A stretch of 24,444 nucleotides of DNA from positions 1 to 24,444 of the forward strand of contig JANOTL010000129.1 in NCBI GenBank assembly GCA_031416315.1, given 5' to 3'. A program made the position numbers and the translations under genes. The stretch is from Pseudomonadota bacterium. Its GTDB lineage: Bacteria > Bdellovibrionota_B > Oligoflexia > Oligoflexales > CAIYRB01. Of the stretch, positions 1 through 10,276 are shown one piece after another. The number at the start of each line of letters is the position of its first letter. The stretch's first letter is position 1. Under the pieces are notes generated by a model that was not told the DNA's origin, did no database searches, and worked only from the letters and a program-made list of their open reading frames with translations.

Positions 1-35
1 GAACTCCGGTTCGTCATTCGACGGGACCGGAGTTC
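1..35. repeat. Inverted repeat / hairpin
   Basis: GAACTCCGGT (1-10) pairs perfectly with ACCGGAGTTC (26-35); inner CGTC/GACG stem with ATTC loop. Confidence 0.8.
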
Positions 36-105
36 GTGCAGTGTCAGGGGTGGTGGGGCGAGCCGGACACTGGGCGAACACTCCTCAACTTGCCGATTTT
101 ATTGA
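1..105 (+). CDS. Possible 3' end of a gene entering from the left (candidate large serine recombinase C-terminus), partial
   Basis: Frame 1 is open from base 1 to TGA at 103-105 (ELRFVIRRDRSSCSVRGGGASRTLGEHSSTCRFY*) and reads through the att-like site. Identity is inferred only from context (att site plus neighbouring recombinase-domain gene). Confidence 0.3.
   Translation, partial: ELRFVIRRDRSSCSVRGGGASRTLGEHSSTCRFY
32..79. mobile_element. attP-like recombination site with tRNA-Val 3'-end core
   Basis: Inverted arms GTTCGTGCAGTGTC (32-45) and GACACTGGGCGAAC (66-79) are 12/14 complementary and flank a 20-nt centre. The centre contains TGGTGGGG (51-58), identical to 10200-10207 (tRNA CCA end). 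The symmetry axis falls on GG 55-56. Confidence 0.7.
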
Positions 106-106
106 C

Positions 107-508
107 TTGCCATGCAAGTTCAACCTCATCCCCGACGCAGAGATTCTCCATCTCCGCGCGAACCAGAACCTCACAGCTGCCAAGATCTCCGACAGAACCG
201 GCGTCTCCAAAGCGCAGGTCTTGCGGCGCCTCCACCGGATGAATGTTCGTCGCGACGTCGGCACCGAGATCCGGCGCGGGCCGCAGCATGTCCCCTTCTG
301 CATTCGTCTTGTCGGCGGACGCCTCCGGGAGCATCGACAGGAAATTCGGGTCGCTCGACTGATCGTCGAGCTGCGACAGCGCCAAGACCTGGCGTGGGGA
401 GGCATCGTCCAGAAACTCAACGCGGCTGGCCTAAAGACTCGCGAGGGCAAGGAATGGGGTCTGACGACCGTGGCCCGGGTCTTCAAGCGTTGGAGTGGAA
501 AGTTGTGA
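107..508 (+). CDS. Small HTH + serine-recombinase 'Recombinase' (PF07508-like) DNA-binding domain protein, no catalytic resolvase domain
   Basis: HTH-like LTAAKISDRTGVSKAQVLRRL, then VPFC..VGGRL..H.QE..V..LI..LR...LAWGGIVQKLNAAGLKTREGKEW..TTVARV, which fits the recombinase-domain pattern. Start is uncertain: TTG 107 right after the frame-1 stop, or GTG 41/50/53. Confidence 0.75.
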   Translation: MPCKFNLIPDAEILHLRANQNLTAAKISDRTGVSKAQVLRRLHRMNVRRDVGTEIRRGPQHVPFCIRLVGGRLREHRQEIRVARLIVELRQRQDLAWGGIVQKLNAAGLKTREGKEWGLTTVARVFKRWSGKL

Positions 509-602
509 TCAACGCACCGCTGAATGTTGAACAGGGCGATACATCTCCAGTTGAGGAAGGATATTGGAGAGCTGCAACTGCTCGGGAAAACAATTTTTGG
601 CT

Positions 603-1295
603 TCACGGAGTCGGCGAGCACGCCATTCCAAGCGTCGCACCCTCGCGTCCAAACCCTGGCTCGGCCGGATACCCATTCGTCAAGGCGACACGTTCCGCGG
701 TCGTGAGCGACATGATCCCGCCCCGTCTGCTGTAGCTCATGATGGAGTCACGGTCTTCGTGCAGGTGGTGGTATCCGAGACAATGGATGATTTCGTGGGT
801 CAACGTCGCCCTGAAGCCAGCCGCCGACTTGACGGCGCCCGGCGAGAGCTTGATCGTGCAGCTCGTAATTTCTCCGTCGGCACTTTCGGGAGCCGCTACT
901 CCACCGACTCCGGACTTAAGATCGCTCCGGACGATGCGAATCGTGTGTGTCGCAGCGTAGCTCTCCGAAAAGATCATCTCTCCGGCGGCGGGCTGATCGA
1001 GGTCCGGAAACTGCCCAGGGTAGGTCTGAAGCCGAAGAAATGACGTCTGAACGCTGCGAAAATCGCCTAGAACCATCGCGACAACGGCCCCACGCCTCTC
1101 GCCCTCGGCAACGCCCTCGAGGGGCGTGGTGTCGTCCCAGAACGTCGTCGTATCGAAGCCTTCCGCGATAATTTCCGGATCAAAGTCGATCCAAACCGTC
1201 GGTTGCTGAGGCGAGACGTCCCAGCGCGCGCTGAATAGCGGACGAAATCCGAAGCTGAGGCCGGCGAATATCAAGATCACTGCGACTCTATACAC
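603..1295 (-). CDS. Exported metzincin (matrixin-like) zinc metalloprotease
   Basis: HEIIHCLGYHH = HExxHxxGxxH, Met-turn SIMSY, hydrophobic N-terminal signal, G-rich RBS before GTG. Confidence 0.85.
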   Translation of the reverse strand: MYRVAVILIFAGLSFGFRPLFSARWDVSPQQPTVWIDFDPEIIAEGFDTTTFWDDTTPLEGVAEGERRGAVVAMVLGDFRSVQTSFLRLQTYPGQFPDLDQPAAGEMIFSESYAATHTIRIVRSDLKSGVGGVAAPESADGEITSCTIKLSPGAVKSAAGFRATLTHEIIHCLGYHHLHEDRDSIMSYSRRGGIMSLTTAERVALTNGYPAEPGFGREGATLGMACSPTP

Positions 1296-1307
1296 CTCAC
1301 CCCCCTC

Positions 1308-1703
1308 TCACCATCCGACCGTAACTCCGGCAAGACCCATAGCCCTGGTTTCGCCGCTGCCTGCGCATGTTCCGAGGAACTCGAACGTCAGCCCAGCGAC
1401 GCGGATGAAGCGCCATTCGTAGCCGACGGTGCCGTACCACCCCAGATGCGGGTAAGGCATGCCGAGACCAAAACCGGCAAAAGTCGAACCCTTCCAAACG
1501 CGCGTCCCGCCATAAAGCCCGATACCCGGTGCCATGCCGAGGTCAAAGCTACCGAACGAAAGACGGTAGTTGGTCGGAAAGTACGCCTCGCCGATGCTTA
1601 CGGATGCGGAAAAGACGTTGTCTTTTCCAGCGTTCGCCACCGTTGGCATTCCGACGATGGCAATGCCGAATGCCGCAACCATCAGCCGCATGAGCGTCGT
1701 CAT
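1308..1703 (-). CDS. Small exported protein, probable outer-membrane beta-barrel
   Basis: Signal peptide (MTTLMRLMVAAFGIAIVGMPTVANA), Gly/aromatic alternating strands, C-terminal GVTVGW with terminal aromatic residue. ATG 1703 overlaps the upstream TGA (ATGA). Confidence 0.7.
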   Translation of the reverse strand: MTTLMRLMVAAFGIAIVGMPTVANAGKDNVFSASVSIGEAYFPTNYRLSFGSFDLGMAPGIGLYGGTRVWKGSTFAGFGLGMPYPHLGWYGTVGYEWRFIRVAGLTFEFLGTCAGSGETRAMGLAGVTVGW

Positions 1704-2218
1704 AGTTCGATTCCGATCGCCCCAAGGCCAGTCGCCGGCCACGCGCCGGCAAAGATGCCGACGTCGAGGCCCATGTTGTACTCGACGCCTATGTAAACCG
1801 GCCCGAGAGGCTTGAACGCGACACGGAAGCTCGGCCCGATCTGGGTGTCGACGTCGACCGCGAGGTCATACGGCTTTCCGTTCGCGTCGACCTGGGTGTA
1901 GACCCCCTTTCGCCCGTAGTATGCGCCAAATCCGATCGCGGTCTCGAGTCGACCGAACCAGAATTTACCCCAATCGACCGACCACATGCCGTTCAGCATG
2001 TATCCCGAGACGAAATAGGCTTGCGTCCGCGCGCCGGCCGTCATGCCGGAGATGACGAAGTCTTTAGAAAGGTTCGCGCCGACGTTGAGCGCGGGAAGCT
2101 TGCGGCCACTCGTCACCGTCGAATAGCCAACACCTGCATACCAAGCGGACGCAGGGCCGGCAGGCCCGACGAGCGTGGCCGCCCAGAGACTCGCACAGAC
2201 GAAAAGGATGCGTTGCAT
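1700..2218 (-). CDS. Small exported protein, probable outer-membrane beta-barrel
   Basis: Signal peptide ending ASA; amphipathic strands (WYAGVGYS, LNVGANL, IGPSFRVAF, VYIGVEYNMG, GAIGIEL). Confidence 0.7.
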   Translation of the reverse strand: MQRILFVCASLWAATLVGPAGPASAWYAGVGYSTVTSGRKLPALNVGANLSKDFVISGMTAGARTQAYFVSGYMLNGMWSVDWGKFWFGRLETAIGFGAYYGRKGVYTQVDANGKPYDLAVDVDTQIGPSFRVAFKPLGPVYIGVEYNMGLDVGIFAGAWPATGLGAIGIEL

Positions 2219-2251
2219 GCCATCCGGTTCGGTCGTCCACGGAGACTGCCT

Positions 2252-2270
2252 TACTTAAGTTGTCGTAAGT
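2252..2270. promoter_or_regulatory. Putative operator TACTTA-N5-TCGTAAGT (copy 2)
   Basis: 15/19 identical to 4446-4464; lies 34-52 nt upstream of the 2218 start and overlaps the regulator's stop codon. Confidence 0.5.
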
Positions 2271-2986
2271 TCGACCTGAAGGCAGTAGGTATCTTCTCCT
2301 ACGCGTTTGACGTCGTAGCCAGAAGCACGAAGCTTTTTCCGCAATCTGTGCAGATGCACATTGAACGTGTTGGTGCCGTAGCTGCCGCTTCCCCAAATTC
2401 GGCGAACGATCGTCGGCCGGTCGAGGGTTTGCGCCGGCGCTTGCGTTAGGAGCGTCACGATCTTGAGCTCTATCAAGGTCAGCTGAACATCGCGTTCGCC
2501 AATGCCATTCAATAGCGCGTTACCGAGTTCGAAGGGCTCGCACGCGGCAGTCTGCGTCTGATCGATGGGCATCAAGCTAGCGCGTAGGCGGACCAGCTCC
2601 TGCTCGTAGTAGCGCCGTTGCTCCAGAATGCGTAGAAAGTGCCTCGCCGCGGCCAAGAGATCCCCAACGGAGACCGGCTTGCGGAACACCGCCGAAGCGC
2701 CCTTGTCGAAGGCATCGGCAAGGATCGTATCCGAGAATCCCGTGACGACGAAAACGATCGGCACATCGGTCCCGGAGTCGGCGAGCCGAGTCAAGAGATC
2801 GACGCCTGTGCCATTCGGCATACGGACGTCGGTGATGATGAGATCCTGGCGATCCTCGGTCCAGAGATCAAACGCTGCGAAAGCACCTCCGGCGGTTTTG
2901 ACCCGACAGCCTTCGCGCTCGAGCTCGACGCCAACGTGCTTGACGAATGCGTCGTCGTCATCGACGAGAAGGACGCTCGGAGTCAT
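2255..2986 (-). CDS. Response regulator, REC + OmpR/PhoB-type winged helix
   Basis: VLLVDDD, IITDVRMP (phospho-Asp), VVTG, FRKP; C-terminal LTLIELKIV..L...IWG.....NTFNVHLHRLRKKL. ATG 2986 overlaps the kinase TGA; the ORF-track extension to 3184 is not used. Confidence 0.92.
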   Translation of the reverse strand: MTPSVLLVDDDDAFVKHVGVELEREGCRVKTAGGAFAAFDLWTEDRQDLIITDVRMPNGTGVDLLTRLADSGTDVPIVFVVTGFSDTILADAFDKGASAVFRKPVSVGDLLAAARHFLRILEQRRYYEQELVRLRASLMPIDQTQTAACEPFELGNALLNGIGERDVQLTLIELKIVTLLTQAPAQTLDRPTIVRRIWGSGSYGTNTFNVHLHRLRKKLRASGYDVKRVGEDTYCLQVELTTT

Positions 2987-4365
2987 GACTCTCCTCGCAA
3001 GAGCACGGCGATGTCTTCGATTTGGGTCGAGCTCGGAACGATATGGACCGGGCCACGAAACCCAAGCTCGCCGGCATGAACGGCGGCGAGCACCTCTTCG
3101 GCAAAGGCCTGGCCCGATATCGGGTAGGCGTTGGCATCGCACAAAACCATGGTCACGGGCGTAGTCGCGAGAATCTGCAAGCACTCACTAACCGTCGCAG
3201 CGAAAAGAACTCTCGTGTCAACATTGACCGCGGCGAGCTTAATCGTAGCCACTGTCGAGGCCCGGTCTGCCAAAACGAGCGCAGTCGCACCGTGCGAGCG
3301 CCCGGGCCTTGGCATTACCAAGCGAAAGCGCAAGCCGATGCCTGCCGCAGGCTCGCATGCGATGTCGATCTCGTTGGCATCAGCGAGCCGTTTCGCGATC
3401 GAAAGGCCCAGTCCCAACCCGCGGGCGTCGGGCGTATCGATCGTCGCAAAGGGGCGAAAGAGGTTTGCGGCAATTTCCGCGGGAAGGCCGGGTCCCGTGT
3501 CTCGAACTTCGATGACGACGCGACCGTCTTCAACGTCGACGCGGAGATCGATACGTTTTTCGTGCGACTTTTCGAGAGCCTCGACGGCGTTCTTGATCAG
3601 AACCAGGAGAATCTGCTGGAGGTGGTGCTCGTCGACGTGAGCAAAAGGCGCGCCTTCCGTCACGTGAACCTTCACAGTGACACCGCGAGTCTCAATGAAG
3701 CCTTCGAGCGTACGTAGGGCTTCCCCCACGGCAGCCGAGGCCGAAACCTCCGTGCGCCACGCTGTGCGATGCACGGCGTATTTATGCACGCCCCGACAGA
3801 CGAGATCCATGCTGCGAAGACCGGTCTTCGCGTTATTGAGACGCTGCCGTGCGGCGTCGGAGAGGATTGTCGCCGCGTCGCTTTCGAGCAAGGCCAGATT
3901 CGACGTCACCGACTGGATAGCTCCGTTGAGCTCGTGAGCAACGATCGATGAAATCTCGCCGAGAACCGCCATCTTCGAAGCCTGCAAGGTTGCTGCCTCG
4001 CGTCTCGTCTCTTCGGTGACGTCGATCGTATGGACGAGCGCGACAACTTCCGGCTCACGTCCGACGATGAAGGAACGCATCCAAAGCTCGCGGACCTCTC
4101 CTCCTTGGACGTGCATGCGCGTACGAAGCTCGGAATGGCCGTCTTCGTCTAAGCGAATGAGCGAGGCATTGAGGCGGTCGAGCTCGCCAGGGGGATAATA
4201 GCTTTCGATCGGCCGCTGTTCGTTGCCTTCCCCGTAACCCATCGCCCGCATCGCCGTCTCATTTTGAATGAGGACTTTGTTTTGGGTGAGTGAAAACAGG
4301 TTCACGATGTCGCGACTGTTCGAAAAGATCGTCGAGAAGTTATGGATCAAGTCGTCGAGCTTCAT
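2983..4365 (-). CDS. Soluble PAS sensor histidine kinase with degenerate C-terminal receiver-like domain
   Basis: N-terminal PAS-like region; H-box AHELNGAI, N-box LIKNAVEA, G1 DTGPG, F-box LFRPF, G2 GLGLGLSI; tail ...MVLCDANAYPISG resembles REC; no TM segment seen. Confidence 0.9.
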   Translation of the reverse strand: MKLDDLIHNFSTIFSNSRDIVNLFSLTQNKVLIQNETAMRAMGYGEGNEQRPIESYYPPGELDRLNASLIRLDEDGHSELRTRMHVQGGEVRELWMRSFIVGREPEVVALVHTIDVTEETRREAATLQASKMAVLGEISSIVAHELNGAIQSVTSNLALLESDAATILSDAARQRLNNAKTGLRSMDLVCRGVHKYAVHRTAWRTEVSASAAVGEALRTLEGFIETRGVTVKVHVTEGAPFAHVDEHHLQQILLVLIKNAVEALEKSHEKRIDLRVDVEDGRVVIEVRDTGPGLPAEIAANLFRPFATIDTPDARGLGLGLSIAKRLADANEIDIACEPAAGIGLRFRLVMPRPGRSHGATALVLADRASTVATIKLAAVNVDTRVLFAATVSECLQILATTPVTMVLCDANAYPISGQAFAEEVLAAVHAGELGFRGPVHIVPSSTQIEDIAVLLRGES

Positions 4366-4445
4366 TGGCCTATTCTAATCATGGAAGTGCTGGAAGCGAT
4401 GGAAGAATCAAACAGCTAATTTTGGCTACCAAGTCGTTAGGGGTA

Positions 4446-4465
4446 TACTTACGAACTCGTAAGTA
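4446..4465. promoter_or_regulatory. Perfect palindromic operator in divergent promoter region
   Basis: TACTTACGA-AC-TCGTAAGTA (9-bp arms) in the AT-rich 4366-4524 gap between the kinase and lipoprotein genes. Confidence 0.65.
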
Positions 4466-4524
4466 ATGGAAGTTTCTACACTCACCGATCGTCGCCTGGT
4501 CGTTCGACGAGGAGGGTGTTGGCC

Positions 4525-7500
4525 ATGCGTAGCGCATCAGCGTTTTTGGTAGCGGCTCGGCTGATGCTCTTTGGTCTGGTCGCGAGCGGATGCGAGGCTT
4601 CTTCGTCGAACAGTGGTCCTGCGCCGGCGACTGCGATCGGAACGCCAGATCCCGCTCCTGCGGGGACGAGCCCTGCCAATGGGCCAGGCCCGACGGATCC
4701 AAGTGGCGGCATAACTCCCGCGGCCCCTGATCCACAACAGTCGGGTTCGCCTTCGCCGGCACCGGAACCATCCGGCGAGACGGGCGGACCAGCGTCTCCC
4801 TCACCAGCGACCCCTTCAGGTCCGGCCGATCCGACCACGCCGTCGTCTGGTCCTACGCCGACCCCATCCCGAGCGCTACCTGATGCGCCAACAGCGGTGC
4901 TGACGGGAGTCCCGAGCATGAGCTCGAACGTGGCTGCTTTGTCCATAGTCGTCGCAGGCGAAGGCGTGACTCACTACCGCAGAAAGCTCGGCCCCGCATC
5001 GACGACGATTTGTGCCGATGAAATCGGATACGGCACCGAAACTGTCGTCGCGACGAAAGTTAGCGACTCGCTCGCGCCGTTCGATGACGGGCCAATACGC
5101 CTCTGCATCGTCGCTCGTGGCGCAAATACGACTTTTCAAGGGTTCGCGACTGCAACGGCCGCGACATGGGCGAATGACATGACGCCGCCGGCGGCACCCG
5201 CCACACTCAGCGCCACGTCTTCCGAAGCCAGCATTTCGCTGAGCTGGACGTCGTCTGCCGGTGCCGCCGGTTACGTCGTAGTGCGAACCACGAATCCGTC
5301 GCTCACCTTCGAACCCTCGCGCGGCGATGCCTACCTTTCGGGCAACGAACCTAAGATGGGCGAAAAGATAGTGTATGTGGGGCCAAACTCTAGCACGGTC
5401 GTAAACGGCCTTCAAAACGGCTCGAGCCACCGCTTTGCGGTCTATTCCTTCGACGACCTTTACAACTATTCGACGACCGCAAGCGAAGCCTCCGCGATCC
5501 CCGTGGGCCCGCTCGCAATCTGGCAAGCGTTCTCTGGATGGGGCGCCGGCGAGGTACGCGTCATGACCTCGGTGGGAACGACGCTCTACGTCGCCGGTGG
5601 CTTCAGCTTCCTAGGCCCCTTCACTGGTTCGGGTGTCATCGTCAACCGGGTGACCGGCGCATCCGCGCCGCCAACCGGAGTCAAGATCACGGGAGAAGTG
5701 CTTGCCGCCGTCGCGGACGGCAGCGGCGGCTGGTTCGTCGGCGGGGAGTTTTATGGGTTCGACTCGGTGCGCTATCTCCTCCACATCAAAAGCGATGGAT
5801 CCCTCGACACTTGGGATCCGGCACTCGACGGTAAGGTGCGGGCGATCGTGCGAAGCGGCAGCACTCTTTACGTCGGCGGCGAGTTTCGAAACGTCGGTGC
5901 AGTGACGCGGAACCGTGCCGCGGCAATCTCGACCACGACGGGGCTGGCTTCCAGCTGGCACCCGAACGTCGATAACACCGTAAACGCGCTGTCGATCAAC
6001 GGCTCGACGGTCTACCTCGGTGGATACTTCGCGTACGTCAATGGTATCGCTCGCAATTGCATCGCTGCGGTCACGACCTCGGGGACGTTGTCGACCTGGA
6101 ACCCCAACGCCAATCATATCGTCAACGCGTTGGCGATTGGTTCCGGAGTCGTCTATGCCGGCGGAAAATTCACGAGCATAGGGGGTCAGAGCCGCAAGAT
6201 CGTGGCGGCGATCGACGCGACGACGGGCACGGCGACGGCGTGGAACCCCGACTCGACGAGCTCGGCTCCTGAAGTGATGGCGCTCGCCATCGATGGTTCC
6301 ACGCTGTATGCGACCGGATATTTCGACAATATCGGTGGAGCAGCGCGCTCGAACCTCGCAGCTATCGATGTTTCGACCGGCTCGGCGACCGCTTGGAACC
6401 CCACGATCACCTCGACTGGCAAGGCCCTAGCCCTCACCAGTGACGACGTCCTCATCGGAGGCTACTTCTCGAAAACAGGAGCTCTCGATCGAAACAACGC
6501 GGCCGCCGTTGCCAAAGCCGACGGGACGGTTCGGAGCTGGGACCCGAGCTTTTCGTCGAACGTGAACGCCATTGCCGTCGACGGCGACGCCGTATTCGTC
6601 GGCGGGCGGTTCCTCAGCTCCGGGGGCCGACCGCGGCGCAACCTCGCCGCGATCGACCTTGCAACTGGAAAGGCTACTGACTGGAACCCTAAGTGCTACA
6701 AGGCTTCCGGCGAATCTATGCCGATCTGGAGTATGGTACGCGACGGCGCCACGATGTACGTCGCCGGAAACTTCGACAACTGCGGCGGCGCCGCGCGCTC
6801 GCACCTAGCTGCCATCGATCTCGCCACAGGGGCTGCACTGCCGCTGAACGTCGCGATCAATCAGCGTCTCTACAACGTCGCGAAGAGGGGAACGACCCTC
6901 TATCTCGGCGGCGATTTCACAACCGTCGGGGGCCAGACTCGCAATCATTTCGCTGCTATCGACACCGACGGCAACGTCCTGCCCTTGGATCCGAATCCGA
7001 ACGGCTCGACTGTTCGCGCCATCGCGGTCACAGATGACGCTATCTATCTCAGCGGGGACTTCACGACCGTCGCCGGTCAAAGCCGGCAACACCTCGCCGC
7101 GCTCAACTCGACGACGGGCGTGCTGAAGTCTTGGAACCCTGGGATGAACGGTGAGGCAGCACGCCTCCTAGTCGCGGGCGGTGACCTCTACGTCGCCGGC
7201 AGCTTTTCGACGATCGGCAGCGCGACGCGTAAAAATATCGCTCGTCTCAAACTGTCGGATGCAGCGTTGAGCGCCTGGGCTCCCGATCCGGATCAGCTCG
7301 TTTTTGATCTCGTTCCTTCGGGAGATCGAGTCTATTTCACCGGCGCCTTCACCAAGGTCGGCGCGACCGATCGAGGTGGCATCGCGGCCGTCGACGCCTT
7401 ACTGGGAGGTCTTCTGCCGTTCTCTGGCAACGGCTTCCAGGCCTCTGGAATCGCAGTCTCCGGGCTCGGTGTTTACGTGGGTGGCGCCTTCTTCGAGCTC

Positions 7501-7563
7501 GGAGGTAAATCCAACGTCTATGGTCTTGGCGTTCTTGGCATCAATTCTGGTTTACACCCTTGA
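4525..7563 (+). CDS. Large surface lipoprotein: Pro/Ser/Thr stalk, Ig-like + FN3-like domains, 14 beta-propeller blades
   Basis: RBS GGAGG 4511-4515, ATG 4525, lipobox ASGC, long P/S/T/G/A linker, FN3-like (PAAPATLSA..ISLSW..GYVV..GLQNGSSHRFAVYSFD), 14 repeats of about 48 aa (V.AL...G.TLYVGG.F..IGG..R..LAAID..TG....WNP). Confidence 0.88.
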   Translation: MRSASAFLVAARLMLFGLVASGCEASSSNSGPAPATAIGTPDPAPAGTSPANGPGPTDPSGGITPAAPDPQQSGSPSPAPEPSGETGGPASPSPATPSGPADPTTPSSGPTPTPSRALPDAPTAVLTGVPSMSSNVAALSIVVAGEGVTHYRRKLGPASTTICADEIGYGTETVVATKVSDSLAPFDDGPIRLCIVARGANTTFQGFATATAATWANDMTPPAAPATLSATSSEASISLSWTSSAGAAGYVVVRTTNPSLTFEPSRGDAYLSGNEPKMGEKIVYVGPNSSTVVNGLQNGSSHRFAVYSFDDLYNYSTTASEASAIPVGPLAIWQAFSGWGAGEVRVMTSVGTTLYVAGGFSFLGPFTGSGVIVNRVTGASAPPTGVKITGEVLAAVADGSGGWFVGGEFYGFDSVRYLLHIKSDGSLDTWDPALDGKVRAIVRSGSTLYVGGEFRNVGAVTRNRAAAISTTTGLASSWHPNVDNTVNALSINGSTVYLGGYFAYVNGIARNCIAAVTTSGTLSTWNPNANHIVNALAIGSGVVYAGGKFTSIGGQSRKIVAAIDATTGTATAWNPDSTSSAPEVMALAIDGSTLYATGYFDNIGGAARSNLAAIDVSTGSATAWNPTITSTGKALALTSDDVLIGGYFSKTGALDRNNAAAVAKADGTVRSWDPSFSSNVNAIAVDGDAVFVGGRFLSSGGRPRRNLAAIDLATGKATDWNPKCYKASGESMPIWSMVRDGATMYVAGNFDNCGGAARSHLAAIDLATGAALPLNVAINQRLYNVAKRGTTLYLGGDFTTVGGQTRNHFAAIDTDGNVLPLDPNPNGSTVRAIAVTDDAIYLSGDFTTVAGQSRQHLAALNSTTGVLKSWNPGMNGEAARLLVAGGDLYVAGSFSTIGSATRKNIARLKLSDAALSAWAPDPDQLVFDLVPSGDRVYFTGAFTKVGATDRGGIAAVDALLGGLLPFSGNGFQASGIAVSGLGVYVGGAFFELGGKSNVYGLGVLGINSGLHP

Positions 7564-7622
7564 GCGCAACACGCGAAGTTCAACCGATCCACGACCACTT
7601 TCGAACGACCGGGGCTGCCGCA

Positions 7623-9998
7623 ATGATGACCCACTTTTCTTCGCGCGTTCTTCTGATGACGGCGCTCGTACTTCAAGGCTGCAGCGGCGGCGGGGGCGGC
7701 GGCGCGACGAAGTCGTCGCCCGCGGTGACACCGCGATCGCCCGCGGCAATTCCCGCGGCAGCACCGCCACCAGCCGCGCCCGAAATCGGGGCGGTCGCAG
7801 TAAGTACTGAAGCGGGCTCGAAGGAGACGATTGACGCCCTAGAGGGCGTCGAAAGCGCACCTGATAAAGTTCCTGCGGGCACGCTTGGCAGCGTTGCTAT
7901 GGTCGGCGTCCTGGCGATCGGCATTGCTGAGCAAGAGGCAGTACTCGGCCTCGCATCCGAAGCTCAGCGGTTCTTGGCCCGATACGTCGAAACAGGCGAC
8001 TTGCAAGTCCTCGATATGGCGAAGCTCGGCTTCACGGCGGATTCACATGTCGATCGAATGATCGACGTCGGCAGCTATGGTTTCATCGTGCTCGGGGGAT
8101 TTGGCATTGCCAACGAAGGCAAAGACGATACCAAAGGGCAGGTCCTTTGGCTGAAACCGGACGGTTCGCTGCGCTTGTTCGACGGTGCATCTTTTGGATC
8201 ACCGGAGTCAAGAGTCGAGCAGATGCAGTTCACCAAGGACGGACGCTTGTGGCTTCGCTATCAAGCGACGTTCGACGGACGAGCGCTTGGGTACATCGAC
8301 TTGAAAACGGGTGAGTTCCATCAGCTGACCGACGACCAGCAGTCCATCGAATCCTTCGTCGCGACCGTTTCCGGAGATGTCTTCCTCTCGGGCCAAGTGC
8401 GCGCGACGAGCGCCAAATTCATCCGGAAAGTCAAAACTGACTCCAGCGGATTCGAGGTGTTGAGCAACATGCCGGAATTCGCCTTCGGCGACTCCGTATT
8501 TGCCCCGAGCAACTGGGAGGGAATCGGCGGTAGTCGCGGGACGACCGAAGTCATCGAAGTCGCCGGCGGCAAGATGCGCTTCAGCTATTTGCCGTCGATC
8601 CTCAACTGGCCGCGCCGCGCAGGACAAGACCGAGCAATCGAGCTCCCGCTCGTCGGCGACACCTGGCTCGTAACCCAGAGCGCCTCAGCATCGGGATCGC
8701 TCGTCGCGCTCGATATTGGAGCGAAAAAAATGCCGGGACCTCTGCTCGGCGCCGATGCCGTGCTAATCGACGAAGCACAAGGACTTGTCTTCGACGGCGC
8801 GAACGTACTTCAGATCATCCTCGACGGCGCCAAGCTGAAGATCGTGACCCACCGCAGGCTCATTTCCGACAAGGCGAACGGGTACCGGGTCCTGAGGTTG
8901 TTCGGACCGAAGCAGGGCTATACCACCAAATGGCGTGCCGTCATTCAACGCTCAGGAGCGTTCTCGGGGTACTGGTTCGCCGACGTCGATCCGGAAACCG
9001 GATTGATCGACGTTGATCATCGCACCAAGCTCGTTTCGGGGAACGGGGAGCTCTTCGGTCGCTTTCCCGAGCTCGTTCGCAAGGTCGGAAGTCGCTCGTT
9101 TCTCGTCTACTATGGGGAAATCTACCAGTTCTCCGAGCCCGCCGCGAACGATCCGGAGGTCACCCTGACCGAAGCGACGGGCATGCAGACTCATTCGCTT
9201 CGGATCCATCACGGTCTTCTTCGCAACGGCGTCATGTACCTGCCGGAAGGCGACTCCATCAATGCTTATGACACGGCGTCAGGTACAGTCACGAACGTGG
9301 ACCGCTTCGATCAAGCTCCCAACTGCTACCGAATCATGCGCCTTTTCGAAGTCGGCGGCGCTACGAAGAAACCCGCCGCGCTCGCCAAACGGTGGAGCGG
9401 CGAGTGCGGCAACACGGCCGACAAGCTGTACGTCCTCGAGTTCGGCGATTGGAGCGGCGGCTTGACGACAACGAACTTAGTTGCCGCTCATGAGCTCGGT
9501 GAAACGCCGCGTTATACAGACTACGCCATCTTCGCAGACAAAAATGGCGCGCGCTTCTTGGCGCCCAGTGACGCATCGCCTCTTCTTTTGCTAACTCCGG
9601 ACTCGTTTTCCGTTAGCGGTCAGATCGTTTCCAGCCAGGGTATTGCGTCTGATGAAACCGTCTATTTCGCGAAGCAGTTTCCTTACAGCGACATCGAAAT
9701 GGTCGCCGCCTGGGGCAACGATCGGGTCCTTACGGCCGGACTGATCGACAACGAGTACCGAGTCCAGCGCACGAGTCTTGTCCAACGCACCTCGGAATTC
9801 CTTGCCGACCTCGATGGAGTGCAAGTCTACTTCGCCAAGACGATTGGAAGTCGTGTGTTCGTTAACGGCCACAGAGTTGCGACCAATGAGCGCGTTACTC
9901 GGACGTACGACTTGGCGGGGACCTTACTTTCCGAGCAAACGGCATCAGCATTCAAGATTCTTTCATTGAATCCAGTCATGAGCCAAAAGGCCGAGTGA
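7623..9998 (+). CDS. Large lipoprotein of unknown function, beta-rich (possible propellers)
   Basis: MMTHFSSRVLLMTALVLQGC lipobox followed by poly-Gly and Pro/Ala linker; long open frame. Start refined from TTG 7560 to ATG 7623. Confidence 0.78.
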   Translation: MMTHFSSRVLLMTALVLQGCSGGGGGGATKSSPAVTPRSPAAIPAAAPPPAAPEIGAVAVSTEAGSKETIDALEGVESAPDKVPAGTLGSVAMVGVLAIGIAEQEAVLGLASEAQRFLARYVETGDLQVLDMAKLGFTADSHVDRMIDVGSYGFIVLGGFGIANEGKDDTKGQVLWLKPDGSLRLFDGASFGSPESRVEQMQFTKDGRLWLRYQATFDGRALGYIDLKTGEFHQLTDDQQSIESFVATVSGDVFLSGQVRATSAKFIRKVKTDSSGFEVLSNMPEFAFGDSVFAPSNWEGIGGSRGTTEVIEVAGGKMRFSYLPSILNWPRRAGQDRAIELPLVGDTWLVTQSASASGSLVALDIGAKKMPGPLLGADAVLIDEAQGLVFDGANVLQIILDGAKLKIVTHRRLISDKANGYRVLRLFGPKQGYTTKWRAVIQRSGAFSGYWFADVDPETGLIDVDHRTKLVSGNGELFGRFPELVRKVGSRSFLVYYGEIYQFSEPAANDPEVTLTEATGMQTHSLRIHHGLLRNGVMYLPEGDSINAYDTASGTVTNVDRFDQAPNCYRIMRLFEVGGATKKPAALAKRWSGECGNTADKLYVLEFGDWSGGLTTTNLVAAHELGETPRYTDYAIFADKNGARFLAPSDASPLLLLTPDSFSVSGQIVSSQGIASDETVYFAKQFPYSDIEMVAAWGNDRVLTAGLIDNEYRVQRTSLVQRTSEFLADLDGVQVYFAKTIGSRVFVNGHRVATNERVTRTYDLAGTLLSEQTASAFKILSLNPVMSQKAE

Positions 9999-10107: not shown

Positions 10108-10162
10108 TGGGGATGAAGTCTCAACCCCAACACTGGGCGAACAACTTGCAACTTGTGGATTT
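10108..10162. repeat. Second att-like site: palindrome plus direct repeat of 67-99
   Basis: TGGGG-A-TGA-AGTC-TCA-A-CCCCA palindrome (10108-10129) followed by ACACTGGGCGAACA-N5-CAACTTG-N2-GATTT (10130-10162), 26/33 identical to 67-99. Confidence 0.75.
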
Positions 10163-10199
10163 CACTCAGGCAAGCACATCAGATGTTCGCGCGAGGAGA

Positions 10200-10276
10200 T
10201 GGTGGGGATACACAGACTCGAACTGTGGACCTCTGCTGTGTGAAAGCAGCGCTCTAACCAACTGAGCTATATCCCC
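10200..10276 (-). tRNA. tRNA-Val (anticodon CAC), encoded CCA
   Basis: Minus strand GGGGATATAGCTCAGTTGGTTAGAGCGCTGCTTTCACACAGCAGAGGTCCACAGTTCGAGTCTGTGTATCCCCACCA: 7-bp acceptor stem, D-arm, CTGCT/AGCAG anticodon stem with TT-CAC-AC loop, GTTCGAG T-loop. Confidence 0.97.

Follow-up and report, generated by a model that had tools for sequence, protein, structure and literature searches.

The 24,444-nucleotide stretch of DNA analysed here (the window) opens with a reading frame of about 150 amino acids that resembles part of a large serine recombinase (LSR) and lies against a site resembling attP. Is this frame a dedicated gene acting at the attachment (att) site, as an earlier note on the same DNA had proposed, or is it a part of the integrase itself?

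The module reading frame

The frame, referred to here as the module, comprises the following features:

56..508, + strand: probable C-terminal integrase module ("mini-recombinase") of about 150 amino acids, encoded in the P arm (open frame; family in 44/95 genomes; fused to a full LSR in P0252)
134..238, + strand: predicted three-helix HTH domain (AlphaFold helices 29–63; weak Pfam HTH; VIA Z 5.0–5.7)
269..505, + strand: N-terminal half of a recombinase domain, made up of a hairpin and an HTH; predicted to bind DNA (PF07508 positions 2–50/102; VIA Z 8.1 to 9dxd_A)

In an ORF scan of the window, frame 2 reads without a stop from base 2 up to the TGA at 506–508 (168 codons). Base 1 is the first base of the contig, and the N-terminus is therefore open-ended. 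Pfam analysis placed the Recombinase domain (PF07508) above the cut-off (E value 1.5e-4), covering only positions 2–50 of the 102 in the HMM, together with weak HTH matches below the cut-off in the N-terminal part. The same search gave no match in the module ORF to the Resolvase catalytic domain (PF00239) or the zinc ribbon (PF13408), and NCBIfam yielded nothing close to its cut-off. With no catalytic domain, complete recombinase domain or zinc ribbon by Pfam, the ORF alone does not qualify as an LSR, and a catalytic domain belonging to it would have to sit upstream of the contig start.

The AlphaFold model, built on a 17-sequence alignment, contains two small domains, one of helices (residues 29–63) and one of strands and helices (residues 85–148), with a mean pLDDT of 79, a pTM of 0.46, and low confidence at the N-terminus and in the linker. 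Residues 74–152 align with the recombinase domain of a serine integrase (9dxd_A; VIA Z 8.1, rmsd 2.8, 79 residues), while the first domain aligns with generic HTHs from Mos1, GcrA, and Tn3 resolvase (VIA Z 5.0–5.7). Foldseek with this model returned no match at E ≤ 1e-3, and hhalign of the half recombinase domain against the LSR family reached only 54% probability at 16% identity. The HMM and structure predictions proposed in the earlier note thus recovered two predicted small domains and half a recombinase domain. Its description of an intact frame carrying an HTH and a recombinase-domain portion, without catalytic or zinc domains, was confirmed, with the qualifications that the recombinase portion is the first half only and that the HTH matches in Pfam are sub-threshold.

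The start that had been assigned at TTG107 was not borne out, as frame 2 is open from base 2 and the homologues align from 50–56. A paralogue on contig C125 (45% identical) and its relatives align from the att centre, at window 50–56, far 5' of TTG107. An arrangement in which a frame-1 LSR ends at the stop at 103–105 and the module starts at TTG107 was also rejected, as the LSR tail described below lies in frame 2 and the homologues align from about 50; because that tail shares frame 2 with the module ORF, the frame-1 stop is irrelevant. The Shine-Dalgarno sequence of the window copy matches at 3/5 positions, and no + strand promoter was found within window 1–700.

The tail of an LSR gene at the contig start

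The first 18 codons of the module frame are identical at 17/18 residues to the C-terminus of the LSR P0153 (residues 567–584), and on this match the ORF carries on directly, in the same frame, from the C-terminus of an LSR. Bases 1–55 share 43/55 nucleotides with the 3' end of the LSR L146, which is located next to tRNA-Ala and comes from the window host's own family. Both P0153 and L146 carry Resolvase, Recombinase, and Zn-ribbon domains, and both end in a short tail typical of antisense tRNA, seen at the DNA level for L146 only. The reading of bases 1–50 as ordinary chromosomal tRNA flank was rejected after these two matches. Two features were assigned:

2..55, + strand: 3' tail of an LSR gene (frame 2), also the P' arm of the att site; truncated by the contig start (17/18 aa to P0153; 43/55 nt to L146)
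1..36, − strand: hairpin in the P' arm (−21.4 kcal/mol; −23.0 kcal/mol in L146, with a different inner stem)

The hairpin is likely a terminator supplied by the element behind the tRNA, whose T-run would fall just off the contig. A terminator scanner reported none at 1..36. The copy in genome G009 (L008/L087) retains this tail hairpin, with an A-run ahead of it on the + strand, and has no upstream LSR.

No overlap with the window start was found among the other contigs of the assembly, and in the probable source sequencing run the matching contig likewise begins at base 1 and shows no joint, of the kind a free circle would give. Searches of the assembly (93% complete) by tblastn, Pfam, and a custom HMM found no LSR gene; a small resolvase is present on C188 only. 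The window copy is most likely either a P'|P junction, as made between tandem islands, or a relic. An upstream gene, if intact beyond the contig, would encode about 734 amino acids; otherwise the copy is plausibly a relic with the LSR tail only, as in G009.

Predicted attachment sites and layout of the window

The sites and the DNA between them are as follows:

30..81, unstranded: attP-like site P'|P (inverted repeat about G55|G56, CGAAC at positions 20–24 of both arms)
603..9998, unstranded: cargo, lying between the two att sites (a putative zinc peptidase, two exported unknowns, a histidine kinase with a response regulator, and two large lipoproteins of beta-propeller-like type)
10130..10162, + strand: decayed duplicate of the P arm together with the first module codons (79% identical to 67–99)
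10185..10223, unstranded: attB-like site at the tRNA 3' end (CGAAC at 16–20 of the left arm and 15–19 in the T-loop; centre 10204|10205)
10200..10276, − strand: tRNA-Val(CAC), the likely target (ARAGORN, Rfam; antisense 3' end equals window 51–58)

The imperfect inverted repeat at 30–81 has 15/19 symmetric matches, a score reached by 2 of the 24,392 centres in the window with an arm size that was picked after the site had been viewed. Its CGAAC motifs fall at 32–36 and 75–79, and the same arm spacing is found in LSR-tRNA junctions and homologues. The motif in the P arms is 5 bp further out than in the tRNA T-loop (20–24 versus 15–19), which is an LSR attP/attB signature. The LI/A118 integrase is similar in having sites of about 50 bp, with the distal, zinc-domain motif described as 5 bp further in for attB than for attP (PMC3783163). 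From the sequence we infer that crossover would occur at G55|G56, with the T-loop of the tRNA acting as the zinc-domain motif of attB.

The distal site of the window is P'|P and the tRNA site is B-like on both sides; with a B-type arm on the tRNA side, the window is not a simple attR–attL island. The decayed P-arm copy points to repeated events. The earlier observation that both attP and attB are present was upheld, in the form of an attP-like site and an attB-like site at tRNA-Val in direct orientation, as was the association of the module with an att site. The accompanying proposal, that the module acts as a blocker and explains why the sites persist unrecombined, is not needed, because no LSR was found in the 93%-complete assembly.

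No integrase was found in the cargo, which has a GC content of 0.57–0.63 versus 0.66 past the tRNA. The lipoprotein-like ORFs at 4516–9998 encode 1015 and 812 amino acids, the first with DUF5122-type propeller repeats and the second without a Pfam match. An Rfam scan of the window returned the tRNA only.

Distribution, frames, and selection of the module

Module matches were obtained in 16/61 relatives with a single-protein query, in 44/95 genomes of the order (up to 29 per genome) with an alignment query, and in 35/131 genomes of the phylum at a stricter cut-off. The NCBI labels of two LSR homologues are Bdellovibrionaceae and Bdellovibrionota. Word-index searches with the module ORF and alignment A3 gave no match, which is weak evidence. 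Pattern scans returned none in the viral set, one in metagenomes, and in genome contigs none and then three uninformative loci; tblastn of the module found none in phages and one weak partial match in plasmids.

Both domains occur in one ORF in 71 of the 105 distinct module copies in the fetched loci, many in islands without an LSR; the other 34 are split or partial, and a number of these lie at contig ends. The module faces the 3' end of a tRNA or tmRNA gene, 0.6–12 kb away, in 30/35 copies with such a gene in the locus (22/26 loci), a count made on hand-picked stretches, often longer downstream, and including related copies that are not independent. The opposite layout was seen in L083 (9638–10141) and L094 (14080–14601), where the module directly follows tRNA-His on the same strand, perhaps by inverted integration. 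A frameshifted 3' module fragment (L002 6741–6896; G000:C95) is 82% identical at the DNA level to window 335–480. The dN/dS check that had been suggested indicated purifying selection, with values of 0.09–0.41 among module pairs of at least 62% identity and measurable dS, for which the window copy had no qualifying partner.

A recognisable att centre was located in 48/93 HTH-bearing copies within a search range of 120–200 nt before a fixed lysine, and in 46 of those it falls 149–166 nt before this residue; a clear centre was not found in the other 45. All three frames are in use (A 17, B 9, and C 22 among the 48), the copies keeping whichever frame the LSR uses across att. Forty-three copies are open from the att centre, of which two have a start with a Shine-Dalgarno match of at least 4/5 and nine have no start codon before the HTH.

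Among the top 150 database representatives, 49 are near-full-length module matches (135–286 aa), 38 of them of at most 170 aa, and the remaining 101 mostly repeat a single module unit, either the one or the other, in tandem. In P0001–P0013 and similar entries, P0021, P0065, P0099, and P0108, the module halves form long tandem repeats, counted by eye as 8–16 HTH units or 3–5 half-recombinase units; in some of these proteins the repeats follow an N-terminus that looks HNH-like or resolvase-like.

LSRs at tRNA genes

Antisense read-through into a tRNA or tmRNA gene was observed in 25/40 LSR-centred loci. By a strict count, 78 of the 120 best LSR homologues of L146 have an antisense-tRNA ending; a looser count of 94/120 includes false positives. 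A perfect CGAAC at LSR-arm position 20 is present in 10/32 LSR-tRNA junctions centred by the T-loop, and the remaining 22 belong partly to clades with other motifs. Where at least 9 kb upstream was available (9–16 kb fetched), 1/15 tRNA-linked LSRs had a correctly oriented module within the fetched DNA. Four more tRNA-linked LSRs have a module 24–33 kb away, and some LSR clades may be without one. The LSR homologues P0236, P0246, P0261, and P0220 continue beyond the att motif; their tails are not tRNA-derived, do not match the module, and are possibly other P-arm extensions.

Fusions of LSR and module, and islands that carry both parts

In P0252 (739 aa), a complete LSR is followed by an att-arm motif and then by the module, all in frame; the protein contains Resolvase, two Recombinase, Zn-ribbon, and HTH domains, and matches the module with an E value of 8e-25. 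It is the only long LSR-module form (1/120) among the best homologues of L146, and none was found among 13 viral loci. In P0085, a coiled-coil region of the L146 family (37% identity to L146 over 100 aa) is joined to a module of the window's clade, and further partial fusions occur in L059, L060, L053, L064, L067, and L093. Of the 50 rows of the tree, 8 are fused, and these sit on several branches (6 changes); P0252 forms a long branch, and the window and L087 are not labelled as fused.

The predicted attachment site lies within the integrase reading frame. The N and C parts were found at opposite ends of two intact islands, with LSR and module sharing a frame in 2/2 pairs: L086 (C/C, 8.0 kb) and L168 (B/B, 15.6 kb). 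In L086 the left arm of the distal site is B-type and its right arm P-type; at the tRNA site the order is reversed, as integration predicts. The window itself holds the C part and the LSR tail only. The cargo of L086 (8966–14867) includes a primase-polymerase with DUF3987 and a DUF4238 gene, and that of L168 (5316–18336) a PolA-like polymerase, TetR/MFS, and an aminoglycoside-nucleotidyltransferase-like gene.

At 14 junctions the left arm resembles an LSR end more closely than the null allows (threshold at least 27/45; null maximum 26 in 40 shuffles; 9 weaker matches dropped). Of these junctions 11 are in frame, 8 of the 11 from host family f5. The out-of-frame cases are L072, L113, and L136, to which L130 and L074 were added by eye. 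L113 has a stop in the assigned frame of the arm and was probably matched to the wrong LSR.

The derivation of the module from an integrase system, as the earlier note had it, is supported by these findings, while the dedicated separate gene from TTG107 is not, given the continuity with the LSR C-terminus, the natural fusions in P0252, P0085, L060, and L093, and the poor conservation of start codons and ribosome-binding sites among the copies. The note had also allowed that the homologues might be nothing but pseudogene fragments of full-length recombinases. They do appear to be pieces of full-length recombinases; the idea of random debris does not hold, as the module is systematically split off and selected.

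Proposed mechanism and alternatives

Taken together, the module is probably an in-frame C-terminal part of an LSR that is split by its own attP, with a likely role as a switch; the split itself is firmer than the switch role. At the sequence level the basis for this reading is the presence of LSR tail, att, and module in one frame, the antisense-tRNA ends of the LSRs, the module at the far end of islands, the natural long forms, and the purifying selection on the module. The LSR gene would run across its own predicted attP, and integration at a tRNA gene would cut the module off. An attP × attB crossover at the tRNA 3' end would restore the tRNA. One end of the island would then carry a short LSR whose last few residues are encoded by the tRNA, the other end the module, and the P' hairpin would serve as a terminator. 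Excision or tandem insertion would rejoin LSR and module. The circle would then probably give a long, integration-favouring enzyme and the chromosome a short, damped one. By analogy, the two extra HTH units might bind element DNA near attP or cover an RDF-binding site. The switch role is proposed because of the Mx8 precedent discussed below and because C-terminal extensions have been suggested to obstruct the site where an RDF binds (PMC12286644); a role of the module in directionality is put forward by analogy with these cases. Rarity of the long form would be expected if most sequenced copies are integrated. Counting against the split-integrase reading are the single long form among 120 LSR homologues and the upper length of 286 aa in the 49 near-full-length matches, the out-of-frame junctions and the origin of 8 of the 11 in-frame ones in one host family, the 14/15 tRNA-linked LSRs with no correctly oriented module in the fetched DNA, the 45/93 copies without a clear att centre, the lack of an upstream LSR on the contig or of one found in the assembly, and the B-type arm on the tRNA side of the window.

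The alternative closest to the earlier proposal is a stand-alone att-binding accessory protein (a blocker, repressor, or directionality factor), which would start at GTG50/53 in the att core and be expressed from attR or P'|P. It is favoured by the short database representatives (38/49 of at most 170 aa) and by the 71/105 copies with both domains in one ORF, many in islands without an LSR. Furthermore, the frame A core itself supplies the GTG, the C125 paralogue has a perfect GGAGG followed by ATG, and the 13-row subclade of the window copy consists entirely of frame A or core-start members without a long fusion. However, frames B and C have no core start, 9/43 copies have no start codon, only 2/43 have a good Shine-Dalgarno sequence (3/5 in the window copy), and no + strand promoter was found in 1–700. 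The short entries are gene-caller products at attR, the searches behind the copy set favour intact copies, and natural in-frame LSR fusions exist. In toto, we regard a stand-alone protein as unlikely.

It is more doubtful still that the split is real but the tail is a transcription-regulating or dispensable DNA-binding appendage, with an inert copy in the window. The short LSR forms do retain the catalytic, recombinase, and zinc domains, the HTH unit is also tandemly repeated in unrelated proteins, 34/105 copies are split or partial, and the window's assembly yielded no LSR. Against such an appendage stand the purifying selection on the module, its recombinase-domain half, which is unlike an ordinary regulator fold, its fixed position at att across three frames, and the Mx8 precedent, in which an altered C-terminus is described as changing activity. 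Least probable, and very much so, is a pair of overlapping genes in which the module on the circle is coupled to the LSR by re-initiation or frameshifting and forms a separate subunit. L130 and L136, where a full LSR stops just inside the 5' end of the module in another frame, would suit such coupling, but their LSR arms differ in motif spacing and look like junctions of unlike elements, and the two intact pairs (L086 and L168) as well as the window are in frame.

If the module is indeed the split-off C-terminal part of the LSR, a wider and more tentative possibility is that this widespread LSR clade needs no separate RDF and sets its direction by remodelling the integrase protein itself. The circle or a tandem P'|P would encode the long enzyme, with a second recombinase-type DNA-binding module, and integration would amputate it, while reading of the T-loop as a zinc-domain motif might open many tRNA targets and allow cassette stacking and chimeric enzymes. 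For serine integrases without a known RDF, a domain added or removed by the reaction itself is a candidate answer to how direction is set. For tool mining, LSRs cloned from integrated elements of this clade would be short forms whose tail is encoded by a tRNA. In annotation, many ORFs of 150 aa labelled "HTH/recombinase" at island ends would be split-off LSR tails.

Relation to known systems

The layout with att inside the integrase gene has precedents among tyrosine enzymes, and was suspected earlier for the serine-type DsiB. In the ssrA islands of Dehalococcoides, the 3' end of the serine recombinase gene dsiB overlaps attL at the tmRNA gene, and McMurdie et al. considered that full dsiB might exist only on the circle or beside an adjacent island (PMC3146451). 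The present case resembles DsiB in that the 3' end of a CcrB-like LSR gene overlaps attL and that islands occur in tandem, some without an integration module (PMC3146451); the best NCBIfam match of P0252 is CcrB, far below the cut-off. It differs in that no 3' fragment is identified in the available text of that report (PMC3146451), whereas here there is a conserved tail of about 150 aa, with an HTH and half a recombinase domain, which is fused in natural proteins and is associated with many tRNA targets.

The Mx8 integrase likewise has attP within int, and integration is described as swapping the C-terminus to give an active but changed enzyme, read as a switch (PMC6070905). Mx8 Int is a tyrosine recombinase (PMC4383910), in contrast to the serine-type enzyme proposed here, in which the lost part would be a two-HTH module. 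With SSV1, pTN3, and pT26-2 the present system shares an att site in the gene, int(N) and int(C) flanking the element at tRNA genes, and the possibility of chimeric genes (PMC8371274). Those enzymes are, however, tyrosine recombinases with the catalytic domain on int(C) and both halves inactive, and such suicidal integrases have been called exclusive to archaea (PMC8371274). In the present system all three canonical LSR domains stay on the integrated N-part, and the C part has no catalytic domain; belonging to a serine enzyme as well, the window module falls outside the SSV1-type definition.

RDFs are separate proteins; for the module, a translation start of its own would rest on the GTG in the frame A core or on the good Shine-Dalgarno sequences of 2/43 copies. 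One survey predicted RDFs for 43/64 serine integrases, proposed C-terminal extensions for some of the gaps, and suggested that such extensions, when they follow the second DNA-binding domain, obstruct RDF binding (PMC12286644). Those extensions are permanent, while the module would be added and removed by recombination. According to a 2014 database paper, tRNA genes were not among the known targets of serine integrases (PMC4383910), and in a tycheposon preprint LSR elements are given as a minority of its tRNA-associated set. The available text of PMC12884075 makes no mention of a split serine-integrase layout, and no description of this module of about 150 aa was found in the main texts of the open-access literature.

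A putative mixed array, and one LSR family at several tRNA genes

The L001 locus (G000:C125, 1085–6460) combines the 3' remnant of a tyrosine integrase, the paralogous module with its perfect Shine-Dalgarno sequence, and an AbiEi/AbiEii toxin-antitoxin pair, with a 17-bp copy of the tRNA-Val 3' end and repeated arm-like motifs at 6311. It has the make-up of a mixed tyrosine/serine tandem array and possibly belongs to the same tRNA-Val locus as the window. A link between the module and tyrosine integrases, considered on account of this paralogue, was set aside, the remnant being most simply the previous element of a tandem array. In L066 (6511–10735; G060:C19), three tandem modules are followed by a 197-aa tyrosine-recombinase-like gene. 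One LSR family (L141, L143, L147, L049, L051, L101, L114, and L121; G015 and G030) is found at tmRNA as well as at the tRNA genes for Pro, Ala, Met, Asn, and Arg. In every case its frame is the same and it crosses 14 nt from the T-loop, which suggests, at the level of sequence, relaxed T-loop-based targeting. The 45-nt arm of L141 is identical to the arms of L059 and L060.
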